The position numbers and the translations under genes are program-made. Under the pieces are notes generated by a model. That model ran no database searches. It saw nothing but the letters and a program-made list of their open reading frames with translations, and was not told where the DNA came from. Source: an uncultured bacterium (GTDB lineage Bacteria > Babelota > Babeliae > Babelales > Vermiphilaceae). Taken from it: DNA of 64,000 nucleotides. This document shows, one piece after another, positions 1,346 through 62,075 of this stretch. The DNA is taken from the NCBI GenBank assembly GCA_963701085.1, contig OY969561.1, forward strand, positions 160,001 through 224,000, in the 5' to 3' direction. Position 1 is the first letter of the stretch. Each line of letters opens with the position of its first letter.

Positions 1346-2815
1346 TTACTCAGCAATTTTGTGGGCGATAAGATGCATTTTTCCTGCTCCAAGGAATAAA
1401 ATAAGGTCATTTTTGGCGGCAGATCGTTCTATTGCCTGTTTTATTTGCGTGAAATCATCTTCAAATGGGACATATTGAATAATAAAGGGGGGGTTGAGGG
1501 CTGTCAGTTCTTGTACAAACCGTTCGCTGGTGATTGTTGGGATGGGATACTCTCCGGCGGAGTAAATATCGGTAAAAATGAGGGTGTCGATAGCGCTTGT
1601 GGCAAAGGTGGTGAGAAAATCATTCCATAATTTTTGGGTACGAGTGTAGCGGTGTGGCTGAAATACCACGATGAGTTTATTATGTGCTCGTTTACGAGCG
1701 ACCTTCAGTGTATATTCAATTTCTTTTGGATGATGACCATAGTCATCAAAGATTTCAGCGCCTTTGTAGGTGCCATGGAATGAAAATCGTCGCTCAACAC
1801 CACCAAAAGTGGCTAAGCTCTTTGCAATTATTTCAAAAGAGATTTCAAGTTCTTGCGCAAGTGCAATTGCTGCTAATGCATTATAAACGTTATGCAAGCC
1901 GGGCATTGGTAGCATGATAGTGCCAAGCGGGGTGAGATTATTTTTTGTGTGTACGGTAAACAGTGAGTGATCAGCGTTGAGAATGATATCCTGTGCATAA
2001 AAATCTGCGTGCCTGTCCGCCCCTTCGACGGAGCTCAGGATAAACTCCGCTTTAGCGAAGGAGGATTCTATGCCGTATGATATTGTTTTAACATGGTCAA
2101 GGGGCATGAGCGAGCGTATGTTTTCGTCATCAATACATACAATTGCTTTGCCATCAACAGGAAGATTGTTAAGGAATTGTTTAAAACATTGTTTGATATC
2201 ATCTAAGTCAGTGTATGTTTCCAGGTGTTCCAAATCAATATTGGTGATGACTGCAAGCGTTGCATGTAGTTGTAAAAAAGAGCGATCACTTTCATCAGCT
2301 TCAGCGACCAAAAAATCACCTTTGCCCATGCGAGCGTTAGATGAAAGATTTTTTAATTGTCCGCCAATGACAACAGTCGGATCCATTTTTGCTTCAATTA
2401 AGATGTGGGAGATGAGAGAGGTTGTTGTTGTTTTTCCATGCGATCCAGCAATTGCTATGCTATATTTTGTGCGCATAAGTTCCGCGAGCATGCATGCGCG
2501 GGAAATTGTTGGAATGCCACGCGCTTGAGCTTGTGCAATTTCCGCCGTTACTGCCGGAATTGTGGTGGCATACATGGGGATGTAGACAAGGGTATCAATG
2601 GTTGCATCATTACACTCAATTGAGTTGTTGCCTTTATATACCGTGCAATCGAGACTTCTCAGCTGCGCAACGGTATCCTGCTCAGTATCAGGATCACATC
2701 CAGAAATGGTGTAACCACTTTGCTTTAAGATGGTGGCTATACCACTCATTCCTATTCCGCCAATACCAACAAAATGAATGTGTGATTTTTTTGTATACAT
2801 AGAAGTGCTTTGCAT
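1346..2815 (-). CDS. murC: UDP-N-acetylmuramate--L-alanine ligase, with a repeat-derived insertion
   Basis: HIHFVGIGGIGMSG, GSHGKTTT, EADESD, DDYGHHP, FQPHRYTRT. Confidence 0.97.
   Translation of the reverse strand: MQSTSMYTKKSHIHFVGIGGIGMSGIATILKQSGYTISGCDPDTEQDTVAQLRSLDCTVYKGNNSIECNDATIDTLVYIPMYATTIPAVTAEIAQAQARGIPTISRACMLAELMRTKYSIAIAGSHGKTTTTSLISHILIEAKMDPTVVIGGQLKNLSSNARMGKGDFLVAEADESDRSFLQLHATLAVITNIDLEHLETYTDLDDIKQCFKQFLNNLPVDGKAIVCIDDENIRSLMPLDHVKTISYGIESSFAKAEFILSSVEGADRHADFYAQDIILNADHSLFTVHTKNNLTPLGTIMLPMPGLHNVYNALAAIALAQELEISFEIIAKSLATFGGVERRFSFHGTYKGAEIFDDYGHHPKEIEYTLKVARKRAHNKLIVVFQPHRYTRTQKLWNDFLTTFATSAIDTLIFTDIYSAGEYPIPTITSERFVQELTALNPPFIIQYVPFEDDFTQIKQAIERSAAKNDLILFLGAGKMHLIAHKIAE
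2011..2065. repeat. Composite hairpin repeat inserted in frame in murC
   Basis: gcctgtccgc[cccttcgacggagctcaggataaactccgc]tttagcgaaggagga; inner part resembles a palindrome arm, outer part resembles 59624-59653. Confidence 0.75.
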
Positions 2816-44077: not shown

Positions 44078-44259
44078 ACGAACTCCTTTTTTTAACTTTA
44101 ATCTAGTTTTTAATACCAGTTAATGGAGTTGAAGATCAAGAATTTGGTGAAATAGTTTTAAAAAAAGCTTCCTAGTATATTTATTTAGTTTTAGTATAAA
44201 CTTTCACTATTGGTTATAAAACTGCCATTAATAGCATGGGAATGATAAAAATGAGAGTG

Positions 44260-45147
44260 ATGGAAAAAAAGTATGAATTTATTGGGTTGATTTTTTTTGT
44301 GGTATTTTCAGTTGCTGCAAAAGAGAGTGAAAAGTGGGTTGAACATAAGGTAGAGATAGTCAAAGAAGGCAATTTTGCATTGCCACTTTCACAACAACCA
44401 GCGCCGTTGTTCAGTTTTGGGCAAAATCTTGTTGATAAACATGATTTGCTGGCATTTATATATCCATCGCAATTAAAAGGATCAAAATCAAATTTTATTG
44501 AAGTAGTGCCGTCTATTATTTATGGACTGACCGATAGAATGTCTTTATTTGTAGAATTACCAATTGTAGCAAAATTTAAGCATGAAGATACAAAATCGCA
44601 TGGTGTAGGTGATTTGGTTGTTCAATTGGAACAGATTATGTATGCACAAGAAACACCAACTTCAGTAAACGAAGTTACTGTTGTGGGTAATATAACGCTC
44701 CCGACCGGTTCAGCTACTAAAAATCCACCAACGGGATTAGGATCGCCATCGTTTTTTTTAGGAGTTACCTTGAGTCGTAGCAAGACAGATTGGTATTATT
44801 TTACGTCATTGGGAGGACATATAACGACTTTTCATAAACATAATAAGCCTGGTAATGAATTTTTATATCAATTTGGTGTTGGTAGGAATATTGCGTATAA
44901 GACAGATGGGTGGATTTTAAACTGGATGGTAGAATTAGATGGGATATATACCCATCGTGATATTGTATCAGAGGTAATTGATTGTAATAGTGGTGGGAAT
45001 ACACTCACATTAGGACCTTCTCTTTTTTTCTCCACGCGTCGGTTTGAAATAGATGCTGGTATTGCAGCGGTTGTTGCGCAACATTTATTTGGTAGTCAAA
45101 CTAAGGAACGCTATCTTGCTGGCTTCTATGCTGGTTGGAAGTTTTGA
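44260..45147 (+). CDS. Putative outer-membrane beta-barrel/transporter, paralog 1
   Basis: Signal peptide, amphipathic strands, LPTG, C-terminal YAGWKF. Confidence 0.7.
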   Translation: MEKKYEFIGLIFFVVFSVAAKESEKWVEHKVEIVKEGNFALPLSQQPAPLFSFGQNLVDKHDLLAFIYPSQLKGSKSNFIEVVPSIIYGLTDRMSLFVELPIVAKFKHEDTKSHGVGDLVVQLEQIMYAQETPTSVNEVTVVGNITLPTGSATKNPPTGLGSPSFFLGVTLSRSKTDWYYFTSLGGHITTFHKHNKPGNEFLYQFGVGRNIAYKTDGWILNWMVELDGIYTHRDIVSEVIDCNSGGNTLTLGPSLFFSTRRFEIDAGIAAVVAQHLFGSQTKERYLAGFYAGWKF

Positions 45148-45173
45148 GCCCCAATTACACGAGGATAAATAAG

Positions 45174-46070
45174 ATGAGTAATGGTGGTAGTTTGTATGTG
45201 TATGTTGTTCTGATTCTTTTTGCTGTGTGTTCTGCTACTGCAAAAGATAGTGAAAAATGGGTTAAAGAAAAAATAGAGCAGGTGCATGTTGGTAATTTTG
45301 CACTGCCTACATCTCAGCAGCCAGGACCATTAGTTGGTTTTGGTCAAAATATTATTGATAAAGGTGATTTGCAGCTGTTTGCGTATGGTGATCAATTAAA
45401 AGGAGCGCGGAAAAGTTTTGCAGAAGTTGCTCCTTCTTTATTGTATGGAATTACTGATAAATTTTCTTTGTTTATAGAGCAATCAGTTGCCGTAAAGTTT
45501 AAAAATGAGCAGTTTACATCGCATGGCTTGGAGGATTTGCTGGTACAACTTGAAGGTCTTATTTATGCACAAGAAACAACCGTAACAGTTAATGAAATTA
45601 CATTAGTTGGTAATATGACTTTTCCCACCGGTTCAGCTACCAAACAACCACCAACTGGTTTTGGTGCGCCAACATTTTTTTTAGGGTTTACGGTGAGTCG
45701 TACTAAACTAGATTGGTATTATTTTAGTGCCATGGGGGGGATAATAACAACATCACATCATAAGACTAAATTTGGTAAAGAATTTTTGTATCAGTTTGGC
45801 GTGAGTAAAAATATAGCATACAAAGCAGATAGATGGCTTTTGAATTGGATGGTTGAACTGGATGGTTTGTATAGGCAGCACAATAGAATACGCGGCATAG
45901 TTGATCGCAGTAGTGGTGGCAATACCATTGTTTTGGGACCTTCATTGTGGTTTTCTACGCAACGCTTTATTTTGCAAGGCGGGATATCGGCTGTTATTGC
46001 GGATCATCCATTTGGTACGCAGACTAAAAATAATTATTTTGCAGCAGCAAATGTTGGGTGGAAATTTTAA
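45174..46070 (+). CDS. Putative outer-membrane beta-barrel/transporter, paralog 2
   Basis: Colinear with paralog 1; ends NVGWKF. Confidence 0.7.
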   Translation: MSNGGSLYVYVVLILFAVCSATAKDSEKWVKEKIEQVHVGNFALPTSQQPGPLVGFGQNIIDKGDLQLFAYGDQLKGARKSFAEVAPSLLYGITDKFSLFIEQSVAVKFKNEQFTSHGLEDLLVQLEGLIYAQETTVTVNEITLVGNMTFPTGSATKQPPTGFGAPTFFLGFTVSRTKLDWYYFSAMGGIITTSHHKTKFGKEFLYQFGVSKNIAYKADRWLLNWMVELDGLYRQHNRIRGIVDRSSGGNTIVLGPSLWFSTQRFILQGGISAVIADHPFGTQTKNNYFAAANVGWKF

Positions 46071-46071
46071 A

Positions 46072-46116
46072 CCCTTCGATACATTTTTGCAGACAAAAAC
46101 ACTCAGGGCGAGCGGA
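46072..46116. repeat. Half-palindrome variant with an internal hairpin, right after a stop codon
   Basis: cccttcgatacatttttgcagacaaaaacactcagggcgagcgga. Confidence 0.8.
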
Positions 46117-46165: not shown

Positions 46166-46621
46166 TTATTTTTTCATGAATTGTTTATAGTAAGCCATTT
46201 TGTCTTCTTGAGTATTGTTTTGTAGTGGATATGTTTTCATTTCGCTTTTTTTATCATCCCAACTGTTTTCATTATCCCAATTAATTGGGATTGGACACCA
46301 TTTCTGATAGGCTTCTTTTCTGCCTTTTTGAGTATTATTATACGTTGGAGAAGTGATAATGTAGGTTCTGTGCTTGAAATTGTTTATTGTCGAGAGCCTT
46401 GTGTGCATGCAGAGTATAGAACTGTTAAGGGTGAGTAATGTTACAACATAGTATGATTTACTATAGTTATTTATTTTAATTTTTTTTCTTGCGCTCGTCC
46501 TGAACTTGTTGAAGGATTTCTTCGAGCGCTCGAGGATATCCTTCAACAAGTTCAGGACGAGCGCATTAAGAAATTTAATATTTTTCGACTTAAGAGATAG
46601 CTTCTTATTTTTGTGCTTCAC
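46166..46621 (-). CDS. Hypothetical protein whose N-terminus is read through a palindromic element (start uncertain)
   Basis: Element-derived ALVLNLLKDILERSKKSFNKFRTSA, then a hydrophobic stretch ending SILC-M. Confidence 0.45.
   Translation of the reverse strand: MKHKNKKLSLKSKNIKFLNALVLNLLKDILERSKKSFNKFRTSARKKIKINNYSKSYYVVTLLTLNSSILCMHTRLSTINNFKHRTYIITSPTYNNTQKGRKEAYQKWCPIPINWDNENSWDDKKSEMKTYPLQNNTQEDKMAYYKQFMKK
46491..46564. repeat. 74-bp palindromic element
   Basis: 27-bp perfect inverted arms gcgctcgtcctgaacttgttgaaggat around central tcgagcgctcga. Confidence 0.95.
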
Positions 46622-46698
46622 AAGCGCCGTTATTTGGTTTATTCTAATAATGCAGCTACGTATTTATCTACGTGCTTCTTGTTCATAAAAAAAGTGTG

Positions 46699-46775
46699 GG
46701 GCCTATAGCTCAGCTGGTCAGAGCAGTCGGCTCATAACCGAAAGGTCCCAGGTTCAAATCCTGGTGGGCCCACCA
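46699..46775 (+). tRNA. tRNA with CAT anticodon, most likely tRNA-Ile2 (lysidine) rather than Met
   Basis: GGGCCTA/TGGGCCC acceptor, AGCTCAGCTGG D-arm, CT-CAT-AA loop, GGTTCAAATCC, encoded CCA. Confidence 0.93.
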
Positions 46776-46804
46776 AACATTACAGAAGAGCAGTAAGGAA
46801 ATAC

Positions 46805-47524
46805 ATGAGTGATCATCCATTTCTACGATTTATCAATCTCGTCAATTTTGATCAAAAGCTCCAATCTCTTGAAAATGAAACAATTACTATTGCTACTGAA
46901 GTTGCCGCTCTCAAAAAGCAGCAACAAGATTATACGCGTGATCTTGATGATCTACATAAGCGTGTTTTCCAGTTAAAAAAACAAGTAGATGAACAAGAGT
47001 TGGAAATGAAAACTCTTGATCAAAAAGAAAAAGATAAAAAGAAACATCTTGAAAACGTCTCCGATTATAAAGAGTATCAAGCAATTAAGACAGAAGTTGA
47101 AGCAATTCAGCGATTGCAGATTGAACAAGAACAACTTGTTTTAGATGCATGGAATAAGCTTGAAAATGCAGAACTAGCTTTACAGAAAAAAACAGTAGAA
47201 AGTGTTGATCAGATAAAGCAATTGCAGGAACAAGTACAAGAACGTGATACAAAAGCAGTAAGTTTAGTTGCAGAGATCAATCGTTTGACGGCAGAGCGGG
47301 TAGAAAAAGAGGCACAGGTGCCTGCTGAATGGTTGCAAAAGTACATAATGATGCGTGCTCGTGTAACAGATCCTGTTGTTGAAATAGTTCATCAAAGTTG
47401 TAGTGCGTGCTCTCACATGATTACGAGCCAGGAAATGGTTCGTGCAAAGCATGGAGCTCTTATACAGTGCCAAAAATGTTATCGTCTTTTGTATGCACCA
47501 GAAATTATGGAAAAACATACATGA
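46805..47524 (+). CDS. Coiled-coil protein with C4 zinc ribbon (DUF164-like)
   Basis: Long coiled coil; CSAC...CQKCYRLLY. Confidence 0.88.
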   Translation: MSDHPFLRFINLVNFDQKLQSLENETITIATEVAALKKQQQDYTRDLDDLHKRVFQLKKQVDEQELEMKTLDQKEKDKKKHLENVSDYKEYQAIKTEVEAIQRLQIEQEQLVLDAWNKLENAELALQKKTVESVDQIKQLQEQVQERDTKAVSLVAEINRLTAERVEKEAQVPAEWLQKYIMMRARVTDPVVEIVHQSCSACSHMITSQEMVRAKHGALIQCQKCYRLLYAPEIMEKHT

Positions 47525-47985
47525 AAAAACCTTCCGTATGGACGCTGTTTGTAGATGGTGCATCGCGCAATAATCCGGGACCTTCTGGTGCCGGTATTTA
47601 TATTGAAAAAGATAATATATTGGAGATTAAAGAAGGTTATTATTTGGGTATAAAGACCAATAATCAGGCTGAATATTTGGCATTGATTTTTGGTCTTTTT
47701 ATTGTGCAAGAACATGTGCATAGCGGTGACACGGTGCGAATTATTTCTGATTCACAACTGCTTGTTCGTCAAGTGATGGGTGTGTATAAAGTTAGACAGC
47801 CACATTTGCAGCCCTTGCATGCGCTTTGTAAAATCATCATGCATAAGTTAGATGCTACTATTAATCATGTTTTGCGTGATGAAAATATGCAAGCAGATGC
47901 AATGGCTAATTATGGTGTTGATCGTAAAACAGTTCCCCCTAAACATTATATTGCATTATTGAAGCAGCATGACATTCTTCTCTAG
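47521..47985 (+). CDS. rnhA: Ribonuclease HI
   Basis: DGASRNNPG, TNNQAEY, DSQL, N..AD.MAN. Confidence 0.92.
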   Translation: MKKPSVWTLFVDGASRNNPGPSGAGIYIEKDNILEIKEGYYLGIKTNNQAEYLALIFGLFIVQEHVHSGDTVRIISDSQLLVRQVMGVYKVRQPHLQPLHALCKIIMHKLDATINHVLRDENMQADAMANYGVDRKTVPPKHYIALLKQHDILL

Positions 47986-49435
47986 ATTAGAACCTATTTT
48001 TAAACTAATTTTTTCCCGCGCTCGTCCTGAGCCTGTCGAAGGATATCCTCGAGCGCTCGAAGAAAACCCTTCAACAAGTTCAGGGCGAGCGCGGGAAGGA
48101 AATTTAGTATTTAGATATAGGATTTTATTTATCTTAATTTTGTTGGGAAACATATCTCTTGATGCCGCTCGCTGGCCATGGATAGTAACGTCTACAACGA
48201 GTCCATTGTCGGCAAAAAAATCTGTGGTGCGCTCTCGTGCAACGCTCAACAAAGCACGAACATCTGATATGTTGCATCATCTATTTCCCGGTGATGTTAT
48301 TTTTCAAGAATGTGTTCAACAAGATTCATTGGATGATATATGCGCACATGCACGCAAAAAACGGCACACTATTGTTCGTGTATTACTTGCTGAATGTGAT
48401 CTTGTTTCATCAGCCCAGTGGCATTTTACATCCCCCGAGGGTTTTACGGTACAGGCAATTAATAATGGTGATGATAAACCCAAAAAAATTCTTAAAGTTT
48501 CCAGTTTTGCTGTTGCGGTAAAATGTGGCTCTTTGTTTTGTAATGGTAAGCGATTAAAGCACGGAGTACGATTACGACCAGTAGGCGGACATGGAGAATT
48601 TAATGGAACTGCTTACGATGGTGATTTCTGTATAATTCAGCATAAAGATAATTTTTTATGTATAAATCAGGTTGAATTGGAAGATTATATTACTGCCGTT
48701 TTACGCACAGAAAGTTGGCCGGGATGGCCACTTGAAGTGAACAAAGTTTTTGCAATTGCTTGCCGTAGTTATGGTGCCTATAAAATACGAGAAGCAAAAC
48801 GCAGTGGACGACCGTATCATGTAAAAAATAGTAATGCGCATCAAACATATCAGGGTAGGCACGATATGCCGATACTTAAGGCTGCGGTTGAGCAAACAAG
48901 GGGTATAGTACTGGGTTTTGGGGGCGCACCTATTTTGGCAATGTTTGACTGCTGTTGTGGGGGGGTTATTCCAGCCCACATTGCTGATTTTGATTTTGCA
49001 AAAGTTCCTTATTTGGCTCGTACGTATGCATGTACACACTGTAAGGAGTCTTCACTTTATGTATGGAACGTATCGTATGAACTGGCAGCTTTTGAAGCAC
49101 TTTTAGCTCATTATAAGCACGAAATTACATGGTTGCATGATATTCATATTGTAAAAAAAGATAAGGCGGGCCTTGTTGCTGAAGTAAAACTCAAAGGGCC
49201 AAAAAAACATACAATTGTCTCCGGCAAGAAGCTCTATTCATTGCTTAAAGAAGTTAAATCCTTTCATTTTGATGTTCAAAAAAAGGCAGGAAAAATAGTT
49301 TTTACTGGTCGTGGATTTGGTCATCATCTTGGTTTATGCCAATGGGGTGCGCGTCAGATGGTCCGCGATGGGTGGGATTATAAGTCTATTCTGCGCTTTT
49401 ATTACCCCGGTGCTTATTTTATGCGTCTTACATAA
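47969..49435 (+). CDS. SpoIID/LytB-domain peptidoglycan hydrolase; N-terminus contains a palindromic element
   Basis: LEDYITAVL..E, HQTYQG, GRGFGHHLGLCQWGA, ILRFYYPG. Confidence 0.9.
   Translation: MTFFSRLEPIFKLIFSRARPEPVEGYPRALEENPSTSSGRAREGNLVFRYRILFILILLGNISLDAARWPWIVTSTTSPLSAKKSVVRSRATLNKARTSDMLHHLFPGDVIFQECVQQDSLDDICAHARKKRHTIVRVLLAECDLVSSAQWHFTSPEGFTVQAINNGDDKPKKILKVSSFAVAVKCGSLFCNGKRLKHGVRLRPVGGHGEFNGTAYDGDFCIIQHKDNFLCINQVELEDYITAVLRTESWPGWPLEVNKVFAIACRSYGAYKIREAKRSGRPYHVKNSNAHQTYQGRHDMPILKAAVEQTRGIVLGFGGAPILAMFDCCCGGVIPAHIADFDFAKVPYLARTYACTHCKESSLYVWNVSYELAAFEALLAHYKHEITWLHDIHIVKKDKAGLVAEVKLKGPKKHTIVSGKKLYSLLKEVKSFHFDVQKKAGKIVFTGRGFGHHLGLCQWGARQMVRDGWDYKSILRFYYPGAYFMRLT
48018..48092. 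repeat. 75-bp palindromic element, in frame in the SpoIID ORF
   Basis: Encodes RARPEPVEGYPRALEENPSTSSGRA; arms extend with ttccc/gggaa. Confidence 0.95.
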
Positions 49436-49532
49436 AATATCTAGCGCTTTCAAATAGAACTAATTGTGCTATACTTGGTAAATATAATGCAGGTAAAATA
49501 GTGAATAATTAATGACTAAGGGATATTAGTTC

Positions 49533-51781
49533 ATGGCTTTTTTTTATGTAATGGTGATGACGTTTGTAATGATTTTACCGTCAGTAAGTTGTGCTGTTGA
49601 ATCAGTAAAAATAGTTCCAACAGGTTTAGAGCGAGTTTTTGCAATGAGCGGGGAAGTTGCTGTTAAACAACAGGAGATGTTAGCAAAAGCTACCGCTGAA
49701 ACTAAAACGATTGTAGATGGCGCAACAAAAAAGATTGATTTTGTTCGCGGTCTGTTATTTGTTGATGTAACAACGCAACAAGAAGCTGCAAAAATAATGA
49801 GAACAATTATTAAGCAGAATTCCATTGCTGCTCAAGCGCAACAGAAATTAAAAAGGTTACGCGAGCGATTAGCACAGGAAAATGAAGCTGATGATGCGCA
49901 GGATAGTTATGTGAGTAGATTGGTATTGGCGGTAAAAGATGTGGGGCATGATTTGGTTGCTCCATTTAGGTATACAAAGAATGAAAAAAATATAGCGCAG
50001 CAGATTATCTTTGGGTTGATGCAGCAACAAGCAAAAATCATGGAAGACTACCAAGCTTTACCGCTTTTTAGCGTTAGTAACAAAACTCAGCTCAGAAAAT
50101 GTTATGAAACAGCCATTGCGCAGCTTGATGATGAAATATATCGGCAGCAGTGTATTACTGGTGAAAAAAAGAGTTTTAAAAAACAGGTGGCTTTGTTAGC
50201 TGGTGGCGCAGCGGTAGCAGCTGCAGCGGCTTTGCTTGCGCATAAATTTTTGCTGCCAGAATTTTTGGGTGCATCAACACCTGAAAATGGGATAGTGATA
50301 AATAATAATAATGAATTAAAAGATGTTGAGCAAAATAAATTTGAGCAAATCAGCGAACTATCTTCTGTTGGATCATCTATCGTTGAAGAAGAAGTTGTTG
50401 TGCAAGATGAACAAACCCGCGCTCGTCCTGAGCCTGTCGAAGGATATCCCCGAGCGCTCGAAGAAAACCCTTCAACAAGTTCAGGGCGAGCGCAGCGAGA
50501 ATTGAACGCAGTGTTTACTACTGAGCCTGTCGAAGTATCAGGGCGAGCGCAGGAAGAAATTAGTTTAGAGATAGATGCTAATACAGAATTAAATTTGGAT
50601 CAGCCAAATGTGGTAGATCAAGCAAAAGAAGAATTAGATGGAACAGAAGTTTCTCAAAAAGATCAAGATTCTCAAGAAATTGTAATACCTAATCAACCTG
50701 TGGAAAAGGGATATTTGGATATTGCTAAGGATACTATCCAGTATTATTTGGGGTTGGGAGATGTGCCTGAGGAGGTAACGGAAAATAAACCATCAGTTAC
50801 GCAAGTAGTGATGGATGAAACCCCAGGGCTTGATGTAGAAAAAACAGCAATTGAAATAGGACAGTGCCCACTGATTTAATTGAAAATGAATCAGTAATTG
50901 GATCTCCCCGCGCTCGTCCTGAGCCTGTCGAAGGATATCCACGAGCGCTCGAAGAAAACCCTTCAACAAGTTCAGGGCGAGCGCAGCGAGAATTGAACGC
51001 AGTGTTTACTACTGAGCCTGTCGAAGTATCAGGGCGAGCGCAGGAAGAAATTAGTTCAGAAGTAGGCCCTCTATTAGTAGACGAACAACCTGACGAAGAT
51101 ATTGTAATGCCTGAAGTAGTTGTACAACAAGAAGAACAACCTGAAAGTCAGCCAGAGCAACGAGAACAAGAAGAGTCTTTAAACGAGGACGCATTTAATT
51201 CAGCAATAGATGCAGACGGGAATCCGATCATACTTATGCCAACTATGCCTGCTGAACAGGATAATAAAGTGGACGATGTGCAACAAGCTGATGTCCCAAG
51301 TATAGCAATGTCTCTTAGGCAAGAGTTTGCCGCGGAGCAGGAAAAGTTAGACAATTTGAAGGCTGATTATGGGACGGGTTGGTGGACGAGTGTTACATTA
51401 GAAGAAAAAGAAGAGCAAGAAAAAAAAGTAGCACAAATAATTGAAAAAATAGTTGAGGAAGATGCTGCTTGGAATTGTGTGGTGAGTCAGCAACAAGATT
51501 TAAGAAATGCAGATATTATCCACAAGGCAGAGCTGTATCGCGTTGAGATGGATAGGTTAGAAGCAGAAGAAAAAATAGCGGAAAAAGAATATAATGCGGC
51601 GGTTGAAGCGCGAGATAAAAAATTAGAAAGTTCGTTCTTTCAAGCAAAGCAATTTTTGGGAATGCTTTTTGACAGAGGGGATTTGGAATATGAAGATTTA
51701 CAGCATAAAGTACAAATATCAGAATCTCGTTTGTGCGGCAAGAAGGCATTAAAAGATTGGCACATCAAAAATAAACCGTAA
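49533..51781 (+). CDS. Large secreted/membrane acidic coiled-coil protein split by an apparent frameshift near 50860; contains two element-derived 49-aa repeats
   Basis: ORFs 49533-50879 and 50864-51781 overlap and share composition and a repeat. Confidence 0.65.
50416..50565. repeat. 150-bp direct repeat copy 1 (75-bp palindrome at 50419-50493 plus tactactgagcctgtcgaagta module and a half arm)
   Basis: One mismatch versus 50907-51056. Confidence 0.95.
50907..51056. repeat. 150-bp direct repeat copy 2 (75-bp palindrome at 50910-50984)
   Basis: One mismatch versus 50416-50565. Confidence 0.95.
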
Positions 51782-51827
51782 AAACATGCATAACTTACTA
51801 TAGTTATTCGCTTCATGTATTTTTCCT

Positions 51828-51901
51828 GCGCTCGCCCTGAACCTGTTGAAGGGTTTCCCCGAGCGCTCGAAGATATCCTTCAACAAGTTCAGGACGAGCG
51901 C
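51828..51901. repeat. 74-bp palindromic element between convergent genes
   Basis: gcgctcgccctgaacctgttgaagg...ccttcaacaagttcaggacgagcgc. Confidence 0.95.
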
Positions 51902-56483: not shown

Positions 56484-57527
56484 TTATAGGATTGCGCATG
56501 TGTTAGGATACTTAAACTCTATTTCTTTTTTTTCTTCTTTTTGTATCTGAGCATATGTTTTCGCACCAAGTTCTTTTAAAATAGCTACCTTTTTCAAAGA
56601 ACGGTCGGCTTTTTTATTATCTCCATTCATTCGGTAGAGAAGAACGGTATCCTCACAAATGTCCAGAGCTGTTATCCGAGGTCTAAGCGGTTTGTTGAGC
56701 TGGAACAGTTTATTTTTGATTAACATTTGTGGCAGTTCCTTTGTGTTGTTATTGAGTGCTGCCATAAAGAAGAAAAAAGAATTTTTTTGAATTATTTTTT
56801 TTGTTGTTTTTTTTGCCAAAAGATATGTAAAGCAATTTTGTGCATTGTATCTTAAGGATTCTGCTATTATTACTTCTTGTCCTTGATAAGTAGGTTTTTT
56901 TTGAGCATAAAGTTGTTGAAGATAATCATCATTATCTGACCATGCGGCGATGAGATAAAAAAGAAATGAAAAGTCACGATTATTATTAATAGGTAAGCAT
57001 GTTGCTATCTTATCTGGAACAGTGATTGTATCATAGCAATGTTTCCAGTCTAGATCTTTGTAGAGATCGCAATTGTTAATGAGCAACTGTGCTATGTTAG
57101 CATTATTATTATGAATGGCAATCATGGTGAAAGGTATATCGATATATTCATCTTTATCTGAGTCCATTAAACTTATCCCACTATTGTTTGTTATAGGTAA
57201 TAGCCATTTTACCGCTTCAAAATCATTTTTAGCGGTAAGGATAAATAGAATAGTTGCTTTATCGTTAGATTTAAGGATTCCTTTTTTTTTAACATATGTA
57301 TCATATTCTCTTTCCACACTATCGGGCATGAATTTCCACTGATCGTTTTTCTGAGCCCAATTTTTACACACGAGTCTTACACTGAGATCTTTTTCCGGTA
57401 AGTTTTTGAAGATATGTTGACGTATATCAGGATGTTCTAAATCCTTGTAAGTTATCATGCCAAAGGTGGGGGTATGGGAGAATAGCGTTAAAAATAATAT
57501 TGCTATGGTGAAGCGTGGTGTATGCAT
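56484..57527 (-). CDS. Secreted F-box-like/ankyrin-like protein ending in CaaX (CAIL)
   Basis: TFG-M; PDIRQHIFKNL...RLVCKNW; AIHNNNANIAQLLI; TALD; CAIL*. Confidence 0.8.
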   Translation of the reverse strand: MHTPRFTIAILFLTLFSHTPTFGMITYKDLEHPDIRQHIFKNLPEKDLSVRLVCKNWAQKNDQWKFMPDSVEREYDTYVKKKGILKSNDKATILFILTAKNDFEAVKWLLPITNNSGISLMDSDKDEYIDIPFTMIAIHNNNANIAQLLINNCDLYKDLDWKHCYDTITVPDKIATCLPINNNRDFSFLFYLIAAWSDNDDYLQQLYAQKKPTYQGQEVIIAESLRYNAQNCFTYLLAKKTTKKIIQKNSFFFFMAALNNNTKELPQMLIKNKLFQLNKPLRPRITALDICEDTVLLYRMNGDNKKADRSLKKVAILKELGAKTYAQIQKEEKKEIEFKYPNTCAIL

Positions 57528-57664
57528 AAAAAAGACCTCATTAAGTTTATTTTTTACGTGAGTCTGTAGTTTTTTTAATGCTTCTATTACTTTTCTACAA
57601 TTACAATTATCTTTTATGATTCTACCAGATGTTATAAAAATTGTAAAAGAGGGGGGCTGAAGTT

Positions 57665-58558
57665 TTAGAGAATGGTACACCATGAGGAATAGTCATTGTG
57701 CATGTTATTATTCGTAGGATGATGATCAATCATTTTATTATGTCGTATTAGTTCCATAATCATTGTTCGGTTATGTTCCTTAGCAAGGTTAAAGAACTTG
57801 CCGCCATAGTAGTATATTATGTTTTTTATTTGATCATTTTTTAAGAAAGTTTTAAAACAATTTAGTGCATTATGGGCTATAGACATTATTATTAATCGTG
57901 TTGTTCCATCGGTATTTGGCATATTTTGCAAACAAAGAAGTTGTTTAAGCTCATGAGAGTTATCTGTCCAAATGGTTAAAAAATAGGCTAAGATTGAAAA
58001 ATCATGTGGGTGGGTTTGGTCGAAATATTTTTGTAGATGATTTGGTAGTGTTATATTCTTGTAATATGTCTTCCAATTATTGTCTGGATAATTTTTCTTG
58101 TCTGTTTCAATTAAAAAACGAGCAACTTCAGGATTTTTATTATGTATGGCAAACATAACGGCATGTATATTATTATCGATCTCATCGATTGTAATATCGA
58201 TATCACTATGGGTTTTAGTATTATTTTTTATCCATTGTACGCTTGCCAAATCATTCATTGATGTAAAATCGAATAAAATATAGGTTTTATCCCAAGAAGT
58301 TAAATGTCTTCCATTTTTCGTATATCTATTATGTTCTTTTTCTATAACGTCAGGCATAAATTTCCAAATATTTCCTTTGCAGGCCCAGTCTTTGCATACC
58401 AATCTAAAATCGTCCTGGTCTTCTTTTGATAAATGTTCGTAAATATTTTGGCGTATATCAGGATCTGCTAAGTTCTTGTAAGTTATCATGCCAAAAATAG
58501 ATAGGTGAGAGAATAATGCCAAACATGATACTGCCATGGAGAAACGTGATGTGTTCAT
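57665..58558 (-). CDS. Secreted F-box-like/ankyrin-like protein ending in CaaX (CTIL)
   Basis: IFG-M; PDIRQNIYEHL...FRLVCKDW; AVMFAIHNKNPEVARFLI; CTIL*. Confidence 0.8.
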   Translation of the reverse strand: MNTSRFSMAVSCLALFSHLSIFGMITYKNLADPDIRQNIYEHLSKEDQDDFRLVCKDWACKGNIWKFMPDVIEKEHNRYTKNGRHLTSWDKTYILFDFTSMNDLASVQWIKNNTKTHSDIDITIDEIDNNIHAVMFAIHNKNPEVARFLIETDKKNYPDNNWKTYYKNITLPNHLQKYFDQTHPHDFSILAYFLTIWTDNSHELKQLLCLQNMPNTDGTTRLIIMSIAHNALNCFKTFLKNDQIKNIIYYYGGKFFNLAKEHNRTMIMELIRHNKMIDHHPTNNNMHNDYSSWCTIL

Positions 58559-58574
58559 AAAAATCTCATAAAGT

Positions 58575-59057
58575 TTAGCGTGTTGGGATGTCTAAAAATT
58601 GATAATTATGTTTTGTGATAGTGAGAAACTTTTTAATGCCATCAAAAGGAATAGCAAGCGTTGCAGTATTGACTAATGGATGGCATTGCAATGTTTTATC
58701 TTTAAGATTGATATCAAAAATAACCGTCACTGCATGAGCTGTATCATTAATAAGACCAAGCACGGTGACTGATCCTGGTGTAACTCCAAGATATTTTGTA
58801 AGCCGTTCTGGTGATGCAAAACTGAGATTTGATACATCCAGGATACATTTTAATTGTTTGAGATCTACTTGTTTTTCTTTGCCAACAACCACGAGGAAAT
58901 GTTTGTCTGTTTTTTTGTCATATAAAAAAAGATTTTTTATCGAGGTGCCAGGCATTTTGGGGCACACTATGTCAGCTTGATTGCAGGTAAATGCTGCCGG
59001 ATGATCAAAACGTTCGTAGGGGATGTTGTTGGTATCAAGGAGTGTGTAGATGTTCAT
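58575..59057 (-). CDS. YbaK/ProX-family tRNA-editing deacylase
   Basis: KNLFL, LSFAS, LGVTPGSVT, HPLVNTAT. Confidence 0.92.
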   Translation of the reverse strand: MNIYTLLDTNNIPYERFDHPAAFTCNQADIVCPKMPGTSIKNLFLYDKKTDKHFLVVVGKEKQVDLKQLKCILDVSNLSFASPERLTKYLGVTPGSVTVLGLINDTAHAVTVIFDINLKDKTLQCHPLVNTATLAIPFDGIKKFLTITKHNYQFLDIPTR

Positions 59058-59059
59058 AT

Positions 59060-59482
59060 TTATTTGTTGTTATCAAAAAATTTCCATTTATGTGCATTTT
59101 CTACTGCTTCTTCTAAGCAATCCATCTCCCATCTGTTATAAGCACCCACGTTTATTAATGCATGAGTTACTTGTTCTTTAGAAATTTTCTTATCCTGAGC
59201 CTTATCAGGGAAATTAGCTTCTTGCAGTAAATAGTCATCAATTATTTCGCAATTATGAGAATCTATTTTTTTACCTTTCACAAAAGCCATCGCTGATTCT
59301 ATCGGTGTTGGATTACAATAGAAATAAATTTGAGATACAACTGTTACATCGTGCGGAGTAGTACTCATTGCATGATATCTAGGATGATACATGCTTAGTC
59401 CCCCGTATTTTTTATTATCCATGGAATTAAGAGAAAAATTGCTTGCGATGGATAGTGCGACGATTATTTGCAATGCTTTCAT
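59060..59482 (-). CDS. Secreted hypothetical protein, paralog A
   Basis: FSLNS-M; Y.GL..YH..Y and L.EAV..A shared with B and C. Confidence 0.75.
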   Translation of the reverse strand: MKALQIIVALSIASNFSLNSMDNKKYGGLSMYHPRYHAMSTTPHDVTVVSQIYFYCNPTPIESAMAFVKGKKIDSHNCEIIDDYLLQEANFPDKAQDKKISKEQVTHALINVGAYNRWEMDCLEEAVENAHKWKFFDNNK

Positions 59483-59564
59483 GAAGTGACTCCTTTATAA
59501 GTGTTAAAAATTTTTATTATTAAGAGCATATCCTTAAAGTCGAAAAATATTAAATTTTTTTTTC

Positions 59565-59704
59565 GCGCTCGTCAGCTACACCCCATCTTCAGTTCCTTGC
59601 GATGGGGACCCCGATTGGAACGACGTGTCCTTCGAAGCCTTGGCGAAGGAGGAAGTGCAAATTGGGGAATAAAGGATATCTTCGAGCGCTCGAAGGTATC
59701 CTTT
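59565..59704. repeat. Nested composite repeat: palindrome remnant > double-hairpin module > 30-bp hairpin
   Basis: gcgctcgtc end; module matching 40506-40570; insert 59624-59653; central aaaggatatcttcgagcgctcgaaggtatccttt. Confidence 0.85.
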
Positions 59705-59723
59705 AATAACATTATTGATAGAT

Positions 59724-60491
59724 TTATTTGTTGTTTTCTTCAGACATGTGACATTTTGAGTTGATATCGATTTTGCGATATAATGCATCTTTATATGTAC
59801 TCAAATCATATCTGCTACGATGTGAATTTATGTGAGAATTTGGGTTATAGAATGCATCTCTATTATTAGTAATAGGCTGACAATCATTTGCATGTTGTAC
59901 AGCTTCTCGTAGAAGTATTAATTCTTGATTATAATTAGGATTACAGAGATTCTTAAACAGCATGCTATAGCGATTGGGTGTAGATAATGTATTTTTCAGA
60001 GCAGTGTCTACTTGTTGTTGGACAGTAGAATCTTGAAGATTACCAGATAAACGAGCTTGCTGTATTTGTGGAATAACAATTTGAAGAAGTGATTTTCGCA
60101 AATTTAAATCTTTTTTTCTAAAAATATCGCTTTGAAGAAGTGATTTTCGCAAATTTAAATCTTTTTTTCTAAAAATATCGCTCGTAGAATTTAATTCGCT
60201 CGTGGTAGCTTCTAGATCTTTGGTATAGAATTTTATTTGTTCTTCTACTGATTCTTGTGGACGTCTATTCAGTAATAAATATGCATTAAGTATGTCACAA
60301 CTAGCATCTTTTTTATTAGATTTACAATATGAATAAATAGTAGATCCGCATGTTAACTCATTTTCAGAGCAGAAAGAATTGTGATATGTAGGATGGTAAA
60401 ATTTCAATCCCACGTATTCTTCATTTTCCATTGAATTAAGAGAAAAACTGCTTGCGATGCATAGTGCAACAATTACGTGTAATGTTTTCAT
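59724..60491 (-). CDS. Secreted hypothetical protein, paralog B, with an internal 17-aa duplication
   Basis: FSLNS-M; ILNAYLLLNRRPQESVE shared with C. Confidence 0.8.
   Translation of the reverse strand: MKTLHVIVALCIASSFSLNSMENEEYVGLKFYHPTYHNSFCSENELTCGSTIYSYCKSNKKDASCDILNAYLLLNRRPQESVEEQIKFYTKDLEATTSELNSTSDIFRKKDLNLRKSLLQSDIFRKKDLNLRKSLLQIVIPQIQQARLSGNLQDSTVQQQVDTALKNTLSTPNRYSMLFKNLCNPNYNQELILLREAVQHANDCQPITNNRDAFYNPNSHINSHRSRYDLSTYKDALYRKIDINSKCHMSEENNK
60081..60182. repeat. Perfect 51-bp tandem duplication
   Basis: Encodes SDIFRKKDLNLRKSLLQ twice. Confidence 0.95.
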
Positions 60492-60523
60492 TAAGAATTC
60501 CTTTAATAATATTATTGATAAAT

Positions 60524-61129
60524 TTATTTGGTGCTATCAAGAAAATCACATTGATTTGCGGATTCTACAGCTTCTTTTAGATAGGCTAGTTCATGCCGAT
60601 AATTATCTGATGAGGAGATATTTTTTAATGCCATACCTACTTGTTCTTGAATACTGCGATCTTGAGGTTTACCAGAAAGATTAGCTTGTTGTATTTGTGG
60701 GATAATACGTTCAAGAAATTTTTGTCGAGTTCCTAATGTGTTTTTTTTAAAAATCTCAATGGTAGAATTTAATTGTTCAGTAGTATTGGTGAGGTCTTTT
60801 TTATAAAATTCTAGCTGTTGTTCTACTGATTCTTGTGGACGTCTGTTAAGCAATAAATAGGCATTAAGTATTCTGCAATTGTAAGGATCTTTTGTATTTT
60901 TTGTCCATGCATCCCTCCATGATGATGTACAATAAGGATAAATATCACTGCCTTTTACAGAGGAATATGCGCTTATATCAATACGAGAGGCATACCGAGA
61001 ATGATACCATTCTAGTCCCGAATAATCTTCATTTTTATTTCTGTTTCTAACGTGCTGCATAGGCTGCATAGAATGAAGAGAAAAACTGTTTGCGATGGAT
61101 AGTGCGGCGATTATTTGCAATGCTTTCAT
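60524..61129 (-). CDS. Secreted hypothetical protein, paralog C
   Basis: AAGGAG SD; MKALQIIAALSIANSFSLHS-M. Confidence 0.8.
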   Translation of the reverse strand: MKALQIIAALSIANSFSLHSMQPMQHVRNRNKNEDYSGLEWYHSRYASRIDISAYSSVKGSDIYPYCTSSWRDAWTKNTKDPYNCRILNAYLLLNRRPQESVEQQLEFYKKDLTNTTEQLNSTIEIFKKNTLGTRQKFLERIIPQIQQANLSGKPQDRSIQEQVGMALKNISSSDNYRHELAYLKEAVESANQCDFLDSTK

Positions 61130-61230
61130 GAAGCGACTCCTTTGTGAGTGGTTGTTAAATAATTGAGCATAGATTATAGATTTTTTGGAATATTGGCAAT
61201 GTTGAAAGTTTATATTTTTTATTGCGCTTA

Positions 61231-61258
61231 ATCCTTCAACAAATTCAGGATGAGCGCG
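61231..61258. repeat. Single arm of the palindromic element overlapping the tatD stop
   Basis: atccttcaacaaattcaggatgagcgcg. Confidence 0.75.
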
Positions 61259-62075
61259 TCGGGGAGAGATCTTTGAGGTTAAATAGGTGTAGTGCATTTT
61301 GTGTTGTTTGTTGAGCAATAATTTCAAAAGATTCGCCCCTTAATTGTGCAATATATTCCGCTATATCTTTTATATACTGAGGATGATTTTGTTTGCCACG
61401 CATTGCTTGTGGTGGTAAAAATGGTGCATCAGTTTCTAAAACAATATTTTTTAAATCAGTTGTGGTAACAACGTTGCGCAATTCATTATTTTTAGGATAG
61501 GTAATGGTTCCGCCAATGCCGAGCATAAAACCCCAATCAGTGACCGTTTTTGCAAAAGCTTGGTCATAAGAAAAACAGTGCATAGCCGTCCGCATAGGAT
61601 TGTTTTTATATTCTTCTAATACGCGTAATGTTTCATCATAGGCATCACGGCTGTGGACGATGAGTGCAAGATCGTTTTCAAGAGCAAGTTCTATTTGAGC
61701 TTTAAACGCATCACGCTGGCGATTGAGATTATAATCAGGATAATGCATATCGATGCCACATTCGCCAATACCAACAATTTTATTGGTTTCTTTTTTTTGC
61801 ACCCATGATTTTAGAAGTTCAAAATCTTCCTGCCAGGTATCGGAATCATTCGGGTGAATGCCAACCGTTGCAAAGACAGAATTAAATGTTTGTGCAAGGA
61901 GAACGCAATTGCCATTTTCAATACTGCGGGTACCAACATTAATAATAATGGAGACTCCTGCTGCGTGAGCTTGGTCGATAATAATGTGTGCTTTTGGTAA
62001 ATCAGATTTTTCGAGTGGAGTATCAAAGCTACTTTTTACCATCATGTTAATGTGGCAATGAGTATCGATTAACAT
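61245..62075 (-). CDS. tatD: TatD-family hydrolase
   Basis: LIDTHCH, GIHP, IGECGID, HSRDA, HCF, ETDAPFL. Confidence 0.95.
   Translation of the reverse strand: MLIDTHCHINMMVKSSFDTPLEKSDLPKAHIIIDQAHAAGVSIIINVGTRSIENGNCVLLAQTFNSVFATVGIHPNDSDTWQEDFELLKSWVQKKETNKIVGIGECGIDMHYPDYNLNRQRDAFKAQIELALENDLALIVHSRDAYDETLRVLEEYKNNPMRTAMHCFSYDQAFAKTVTDWGFMLGIGGTITYPKNNELRNVVTTTDLKNIVLETDAPFLPPQAMRGKQNHPQYIKDIAEYIAQLRGESFEIIAQQTTQNALHLFNLKDLSPTRSS

Follow-up and report, generated by a model that had tools for sequence, protein, structure and literature searches.

The 64,000-nucleotide stretch analysed here (the window) covers positions 160,001 to 224,000 of contig OY969561.1 (assembly GCA_963701085.1) from an uncultured bacterium of the Vermiphilaceae, phylum Babelota, and carries five palindromes of 74–75 bp, some of them in frame inside genes. 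Such a cluster raises the question of what this repeat is, how it spreads and what it does to the proteins it enters. The palindrome was found to be a back-to-back pair of hairpin arms joined at an inner GCGC, and the same arms flank genes of small GIY-YIG nucleases elsewhere in the genome. [quoted passage not shown]

The original prediction, made from the letters of the window alone, had listed five full copies, and all were recovered with lengths of 74, 75, 75, 75 and 74 bp (Table 1). As it had also stated, the three 75-bp copies differ at the wobble base of a Pro codon only (CCT/CCC/CCA) and encode ARPEPVEGYPRALEENPSTSSGRA, and on each strand two of the three frames are open. The wobble difference is no evidence of selection on the peptide, because the same position varies among arms genome-wide (among 39 arms: CTC 17, TTC 9, TTT 6, others 7). 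The genome carrying the window (labelled G000; congeners are among G001–G009, and L numbers denote loci) is a single contig of 1.20 Mb with 37% GC and a completeness of 92.6%. A blastn search with the five window copies revealed 116 merged loci genome-wide and none in each of three shuffles, an nhmmer model of the arm gave 150 matches in the genome versus 0 in the control, and 223 hairpin heads were counted versus 0–2 in five shuffles. Full dimers of 65–76 bp numbered 35 (16 of 74 bp, 10 of 75 bp), the majority being intergenic. Folding as ssDNA gave z values of -6.0 and -6.9 for the two strands of the 48018 copy and -14 for the 46491 copy. Since the shuffles were nearly empty for blastn loci and heads and the folding values strongly negative, the repeats are not due to chance and the family is confirmed as a real feature, and the predicted non-autonomous mobile palindrome extends, with its 116 loci and 223 heads, far beyond this locus. 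Of 61 genomes searched, 28 contained the strict arm pattern, among them 9 of 10 congeners; G001 was the sole congener without it, and the nuclease was also absent there. In an Rfam scan of eight loci, only a tRNA exceeded the gathering score, the remaining matches being generic hairpins below it, and no NCBIfam match to the repeat-encoded peptide was obtained. A metagenome scan gave no same-species locus (best match 79–87% at the amino acid level), and four DNA sequencing runs yielded short low-depth contigs, none of which crossed the stretch.

The single arm is an oriented hairpin consisting of a CGYTC head, NNNN, TGA, a loop, YGAA and NNNN. The loop is usually of 6 nt and sometimes contains a long self-complementary insert. 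Three stem positions formed Watson–Crick pairs in 182 of 237 arms of this genome (shuffled mean 71, maximum 90) and in 192 of 273 arms near related nucleases elsewhere (shuffled mean 59, maximum 79), with the related copies behind these counts not being independent. Seven paired types were observed directly in the co-varying stem, e.g., TCC/GGA, CCC/GGG, TTC/GAA, TGG/CCA and TGC/GCA. The existence of several compensated types implies that the single arm, beyond the palindrome as a whole, is a constrained structure. Three main arm subtypes occur in this genome, A with 88, C with 64 and B with 26 heads.

A search with PF01541 identified six genes in the genome, four of which encode small single-domain proteins of 96–115 aa (E about 1e-18). 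These four lie directly between inverted arms, with an arm 3–33 bp away or overlapping the 3' end of the gene, and all four cassettes are located outside the window; a look for GIY-YIG genes flanked by the same arms had been advised in the original prediction. As each gene sits between a left and a right arm, its deletion would leave the dimer. The Tyr, Arg and Glu of the catalytic type are kept in all four nucleases. Each of the subtypes A, B and C flanks a nuclease gene of its own, and nucleases with like arms group together, the subtype following the subclade by eye in a quick tree. The arm–nuclease linkage was seen directly across phyla: an inverted repeat of 22–184 nt was detected in 24 of 33 nuclease loci from this genome and its relatives, and one of at least 22 nt in 43 of 77 further nuclease loci from many phyla (80 examined, three dropped because of too short flanks) versus 0 of 54 control windows. 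An arm was present within about 350 bp in 97 of 107 nuclease loci versus 10 of 88 locus ends. The nuclease was found in 19 of 28 pattern-positive versus 9 of 33 pattern-negative genomes, among which kin are not independent. A fifth small GIY-YIG gene (L005, G000:C1 843882–844097) encodes 80 aa with 26–29% identity to the others and is located beside a tRNA. It lies near a different hairpin family of the GCTTTAGCGAAG type, often nested in arm loops, and the two possibly form a third nuclease–hairpin pair.

Comparison of orthologous sites revealed presence and absence of both forms. Among 11 cassettes of other genomes, the syntenic site could be located in this genome for seven. Five of these sites are armless here (cassettes of G004, G007, G002 and two of G009), that of the G006 cassette holds a gene-less dimer and that of the G003 cassette a back-to-back arm pair. 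Conversely, the site of the L039 cassette of this genome is empty in G005 and G007, contains different arms in G004 and was unscorable in two others. Judged from these comparisons, the arm–nuclease–arm cassette is mobile on an evolutionary timescale. The comparison of orthologous sites that had been proposed earlier showed presence and absence of dimers as well.

The closest described parallel is the Ssn system. SsnA was shown by Chenal et al. 2025 (PMC11893778) to cleave ssDNA in the variable flank, a few bases upstream of the hairpin, and to restrict transforming DNA, the sole in vivo role demonstrated in the portion of the paper available. The same portion describes an IS-like hairpin–gene–hairpin layout of Ssn, with mobility as a hypothesis only, and NTS/SRM repeats enriched in symbionts. 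In 12 of its 14 supplements, the only Dependentiae genome found was Babela, with no repeats and no ssnA. Like Ssn/SRM, the present system comprises a small single-domain GIY-YIG gene (<150 aa) between oriented hairpins that recur genome-wide, many of them gene-less. Unlike Ssn/SRM, the arms here pair into 65–76-bp dimers, and 19 of 140 sites lie in genes in contrast to 2% reported for NTS (PMC11893778, in part). The published degenerate SRM pattern had no match in the genome and one in 77 related nuclease loci. The cassette nucleases share 27–35% identity with six GIY-YIG proteins encoded next to true NTS repeats, a set that does not include N. meningitidis SsnA itself. In a quick tree, these six form their own branch (SH-aLRT 89) and the cassette nucleases stand apart on a long branch; the tree contains a single housekeeping UPF0213 reference on a long unplaced branch and omits L053, L057, L065, L066 and two-thirds of the 80 genome loci, and a search for YhbQ in viral contigs gave one fragment. 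The best PDB matches in sequence and fold were UPF0213 proteins; a single-sequence AlphaFold model of mediocre quality (predicted local distance difference test 63.5) pointed with Foldseek to a UPF0213/Slx1-type fold. The mismatch with the SRM pattern, the separate branch and the UPF0213 matches together argue for a sister system and not a member of Ssn, and the sequences point to the cassette nuclease as a sister clade of Ssn.

A second layer of mobility was recognised at the 48018 copy, where the original prediction had taken the 75-bp palindrome as the inserted unit. This had to be revised, as the unit is a 135-bp IS5-type MITE plus a 3-bp duplication, flanked by TTA at 47987–47989 and 48125–48127. 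MITE and duplication amount to 138 bp or 46 codons, and the empty orthologue L318 has 20 instead of 66 residues before the conserved ARW; the exact 46-codon gap and the TTA duplications imply that the copy entered SpoIID as an IS5-type MITE carrying a hairpin pair. The MITE ends in the window are degenerate, within three mismatches of the consensus, and because of this decay the copy is not a very recent one. Genome-wide, 25 of 223 heads share outer flanks ending GARCCTATCYCTAAA. Matching 3-bp flanks were found in six of eight head-containing pairs of such ends in this genome (a ninth, headless pair was taken as chance) and in 12 of 13 pairs in G004/G009. The ends match IS5-family elements (L460/L470/L475/L479 and L464), and insertion sequences (ISs) of 919–929 bp with the same ends in G071 and G105 encode an IS5-family transposase (194.6 bits against NF033580, cut-off 110). 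Both ends of the G071 IS are identical to the 15-nt consensus end, and the 929-bp G105 IS has one mismatch at the left end, with matching TTA/TAA duplications in 4 of 4 copies. Of 261 genomes of this phylum, 10 had the end pattern; its 22 matches in viral contigs were all single, without a paired end, and were treated as chance. Most dimers have no IS5-type ends and no common duplication, and other shared 40-bp flank families exist among the copies.

Copies of the 130-bp MITE in G004/G009 differ by 0–7 bases among eight copies (one from G004), with arms inside all of them. Copies of the two species (L377 in G004 versus L376/L383 in G009) are 3–5 bases apart, hinting at recent horizontal exchange. 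At L493 (G009:C1 about 1024860–1025250), the outer MITE end contains a nested IS5-type end that belongs to another family (TAGGTTCTGTTGAG type).

In-frame insertion into conserved proteins, predicted by likeness to Rickettsia palindromic elements (RPEs), was borne out by clean gaps relative to four to five congeners: 111–144 bp in MurE, 102–105 bp in RecD2 and 147 bp in TilS, each around a 74-bp core, and 120 bp in DprA around a 71-bp core. Survival in frame in conserved genes is thereby observed directly, with AT-rich extra DNA coming along with the core. The rule that a 75-bp length marks coding copies did not hold: with cores of 71 and 74 bp also in frame and net insertions of 102–147 bp, the core length does not have to be divisible by three. 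The same positions were hit elsewhere: at the DprA loop, a separate partial arm is present in G007, and dimers sit at the same Ddl position in both G005 and G007. In G002, G004, G005 and G007, a ddl-like open reading frame (ORF) of 690–830 aa (L311–L315) has hairpin insertions at two recurrent positions. The Ddl and FtsK insertions adjoin frame breaks and were excluded from the clean cases. Single frame breaks affect several essential or long genes, namely tilS (L285), ddl (L286), ftsK (L287) and the window at 50864–50879, which suggests indel errors of the assembly.

The SpoIID insertion is located in an N-terminal, signal-peptide-like region. A host ORF starting only downstream of the element, which would have spoken against an in-frame fusion, was not found here: here, like in the congeners, the start ATG and the rnhA stop overlap, and the frame stays open without stops in 26 of 28 loci, a set including two pairs of duplicate rows. 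Arms occur in the N-terminal region in 11 of the 28 loci, nine in frame and of several subtypes, with 17 armless. Overall, 19 of 140 sites overlap called genes of at least 120 aa, although such genes make up 77% of the genome (calls from a simple hexamer model, so that coding counts are approximate and N-terminal insertions undercounted). This strong depletion implies that the coding copies are survivors of purifying selection; they are tolerated in loops, linkers and signal-peptide regions and are not selected new domains. It is plausible that the in-frame copies, if translated, would create new protein sequence.

Table 1. Features of the window that bear on the hairpin family
Feature	Position	Strand	Remarks
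Weak arm remnant	2021..2044	.	
Single arm, subtype C (long loop)	40417..40469	-	Same type flanks the fourth GIY-YIG gene
Single arm, subtype C	46072..46115	-	Directly after stop codon
74-bp hairpin dimer, heads outward	46491..46564	.	Intergenic, upstream of tRNA(CAT)
Degenerate outer IS5-type end near the 46491 copy	about 46590–46604		
SpoIID/LytB-domain gene	47969..49435	+	TIGR02669/PF08486
Outer MITE, 135 bp	47990..48124	.	Degenerate IS5-type terminal inverted repeats
75-bp hairpin dimer	48018..48092	.	In frame in SpoIID gene, within outer MITE
Hypothetical protein ORF	49533..50879	+	No Pfam/NCBIfam family over cut-off
75-bp dimer (50419–50493), nested half-arm tail (to 50550) and degenerate outer end	50419..50578	.	
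Second ORF	50864..51781	+	16-bp overlap with ORF 49533–50879
Second copy of the 50419 composite, dimer 50910–50984	50910..51065	.	97% identity over 159 nt
74-bp dimer	51828..51901	.	Between convergent genes
Degenerate composite of an outer IS5-type end, a broken head, further nested hairpins and the dimer's central part	59524..59709	+	
Single arm, subtype B	61231..61257	-	

The fragments predicted in the window were all found, those at 40417 and 46072 belonging to a second arm subtype and that at 61231 to a third, with 59565 being part of a composite and 2021 a weak remnant. The statement that the window has no transposase or nuclease gene needs one amendment, an rnhA-like RNase H gene, which is unrelated to the repeat. 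The composites at 50419 and 50910 both lie in an acidic low-complexity region of the hypothetical protein, that at 50419 in frame, and heads are absent from five homologous congener loci. The two composites may represent either two insertions or one local copying event, and the ORFs at 49533–50879 and 50864–51781 may be one gene split by an indel or frameshift. The 51828 copy shares flanks of about 40 bp on both sides with a copy at genome position 660906. Downstream of the 46491 copy, at a distance of 135 bp, lies the tRNA with a CAT anticodon (46699–46775). A tandem pair of paralogous outer-membrane-like proteins with GWKF as their end is encoded at 44236–46070, and an arm begins at the stop codon of the second. 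At 35081–38845, four paralogous ORFs of about 305–327 aa stand in tandem with a repeat spacing of about 920 bp, and more tandem paralogues are encoded on the minus strand at 57388–62075, with the repeat fragments 59524–59709 and 61231 between them. Another palindromic module of mixed AT/GC content (GATGGGGACCCC...TTGGGG type), nested in arms genome-wide, was noticed at 40490–40570 and 59580–59660.

How the arms spread can be pictured as follows. The arm would be the recognition site of the small single-domain GIY-YIG nuclease, with arm–nuclease gene–arm as the autonomous form and the 65–76-bp arm pair joined at the inner GCGC as the gene-less one. By analogy with SsnA, the nuclease would bind the hairpin on ssDNA and cut outside it, in the variable flank; the piece so released may then be re-inserted by repair or recombination of the host. 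Cutting in the outer variable flank would explain insertions longer than the palindrome with no common target duplication. A second route exists for a minority of pairs, which lie within an IS5-type MITE with 3-bp TWA duplications that an IS5 transposase may move in trans. Several results weigh against this picture. No IS5 transposase was found in this genome (92.6% complete) with PF01609, PF13340, PF13359 or tblastn, nor was an ISL2-type transposase detected in it. With the query used, 9 of 28 pattern-positive genomes had no nuclease match. Direct repeats around the 53 paired units showed no excess (mean 6.09 versus 6.04 nt), so that no footprint defines the nuclease route. At the site shared by G006 and G000, the arm subtypes differ, and the two states may thus be two hotspot insertions and not gene loss. 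Finally, Ssn is not known to have strand-transfer activity; what the available portion of the Ssn paper demonstrates is cutting and the restriction of transforming DNA (PMC11893778).

These points leave room for the explanation that all spread is due to DDE transposases, the dimers being cargo of IS5-type or other MITEs with decayed ends and the GIY-YIG protein a passenger or a hairpin-using ssDNA restriction enzyme. A subset with clear IS5 ends and with TWA duplications, the near-identical copies in G009, the further 40-bp flank families and the purely restrictive in vivo role demonstrated for SsnA agree with it. It is nevertheless unlikely, as IS5 flanks accompany only 25 of 223 heads, the nuclease cassettes are polymorphic with no IS5-type ends in the flanks examined, and the arm–nuclease link spans many phyla while the IS5 end pattern occurred in just 10 of 261 genomes of this one. 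The repeats could instead be functional elements maintained by the host, i.e., terminators, RNA-stability hairpins or a domesticated control of recombination or uptake as in Neisseria, with peptide or hairpin positively selected, for example at the SpoIID 5' end. The position of most copies near gene ends in intergenic DNA, the common G–T pairs in the stem, the recurrent SpoIID arms of several subtypes and a dprA gene in this genome would fit, but G001 does without the strict pattern, 17 of 28 SpoIID loci are armless, peptides at shared sites differ in frame and sequence, and the depletion from genes points to tolerance; we regard such a function as improbable. The mover named in the original prediction, a repetitive extragenic palindromic (REP)-associated tyrosine transposase (RAYT) or an IS200/IS605 HUH transposase acting on REP/REPIN elements, is largely refuted. 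Head-to-head dimers do resemble REPINs and REP dimers, but PF01797 had no match in this 92.6%-complete genome (6 of 14 control genomes were positive), the arm consensus has no GTAG terminus, the arms flank GIY-YIG genes instead, and CGTC-type REPs are themselves reported, in the portion of the source available, as not transposase-associated (PMC3733652). Nuclease-dependent spread with IS5 hitch-hiking for a subset is therefore the reading preferred here. A wider claim, put forward tentatively and with somewhat less than even odds, is that of a widespread undescribed class of mobile elements in which a UPF0213-like GIY-YIG nuclease of ~95 aa, and not a DDE or HUH enzyme, would move arm–gene–arm cassettes and gene-less dimers via single-stranded intermediates, taking variable flanks along. 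In independent lineages, the dimers would time and again enter IS5 MITEs as well as the same loops and signal regions of proteins, forming a recurrent source of new peptides, and the enzyme would be a new sequence-specific ssDNA nuclease with its own target.

Parts of this picture are already published, namely in-frame palindromes (RPEs), CGTC-tagged REPs and the Ssn repeat–nuclease link. Di Nocera et al. 2013 (PMC3733652) described CGTC-tagged REPs, including RPE-4/RPE-6 and dRS3, as mostly head–head dimers with common heterodimers, intragenic units encoding 20–30 aa and some dimers nested in a larger palindrome, with no tyrosine transposase in the portion of the paper available. The present repeats share the head–head dimers (53 paired units here), the intragenic units and the lack of a tyrosine transposase, whereas a terminal CGTC, a stem of 8–9 bp and a loop of 4–5 nt are replaced by a CGYTC head, an interrupted stem with internal TGA/YGAA and a loop of 6 nt or longer, a distinction drawn without the CGTC-2/3 consensus. 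As with RPEs (PMC2229807, in part), palindromes are fused in frame into conserved proteins of a host-associated bacterium with a small genome. The RPE fusions are considered there as probably neutral to mildly harmful, and translation of RPE-gmk was shown. Unlike RPEs, the arms have another sequence and length and match no RPE/Rfam model, and the candidate movers are the GIY-YIG cassette and IS5. The IS5-derived MITEs BrickBuilt, MITE293/700 and ATR (PMC4596501, in part) likewise have terminal inverted repeats matching IS5-family ISs, short target duplications and repeat cargo; in contrast to them, the cargo here is a nuclease-linked hairpin pair of several subtypes, the duplication is a uniform 3-bp TWA, and all finds of the partner IS come from other genomes of the phylum. 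With REP/REPIN–RAYT systems, the arms have in common a gene between its own palindromes and gene-less dimers genome-wide, but the enzyme is GIY-YIG and not HUH/Y1, and the GTAG end is missing. A literature search covering few subscription papers revealed no paper on this hairpin type, on repeats of Dependentiae or on GIY-YIG-driven transposition of such repeats.

The spread of short palindromic repeats that have no RAYT partner, such as CGTC-type REPs, RPE-4/6 and dRS3, is an open question, and the pairs of cassette and empty site, the gene-less dimers and the subtype-matched nucleases make the hypothesis of repeat mobility directly testable. The cassette enzymes are candidates for a new ssDNA nuclease specificity, and two layers of mobilisation may be combined within one element. 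For Dependentiae-like proteins, the insertions explain odd stretches of 25–50 aa that will disturb annotation.

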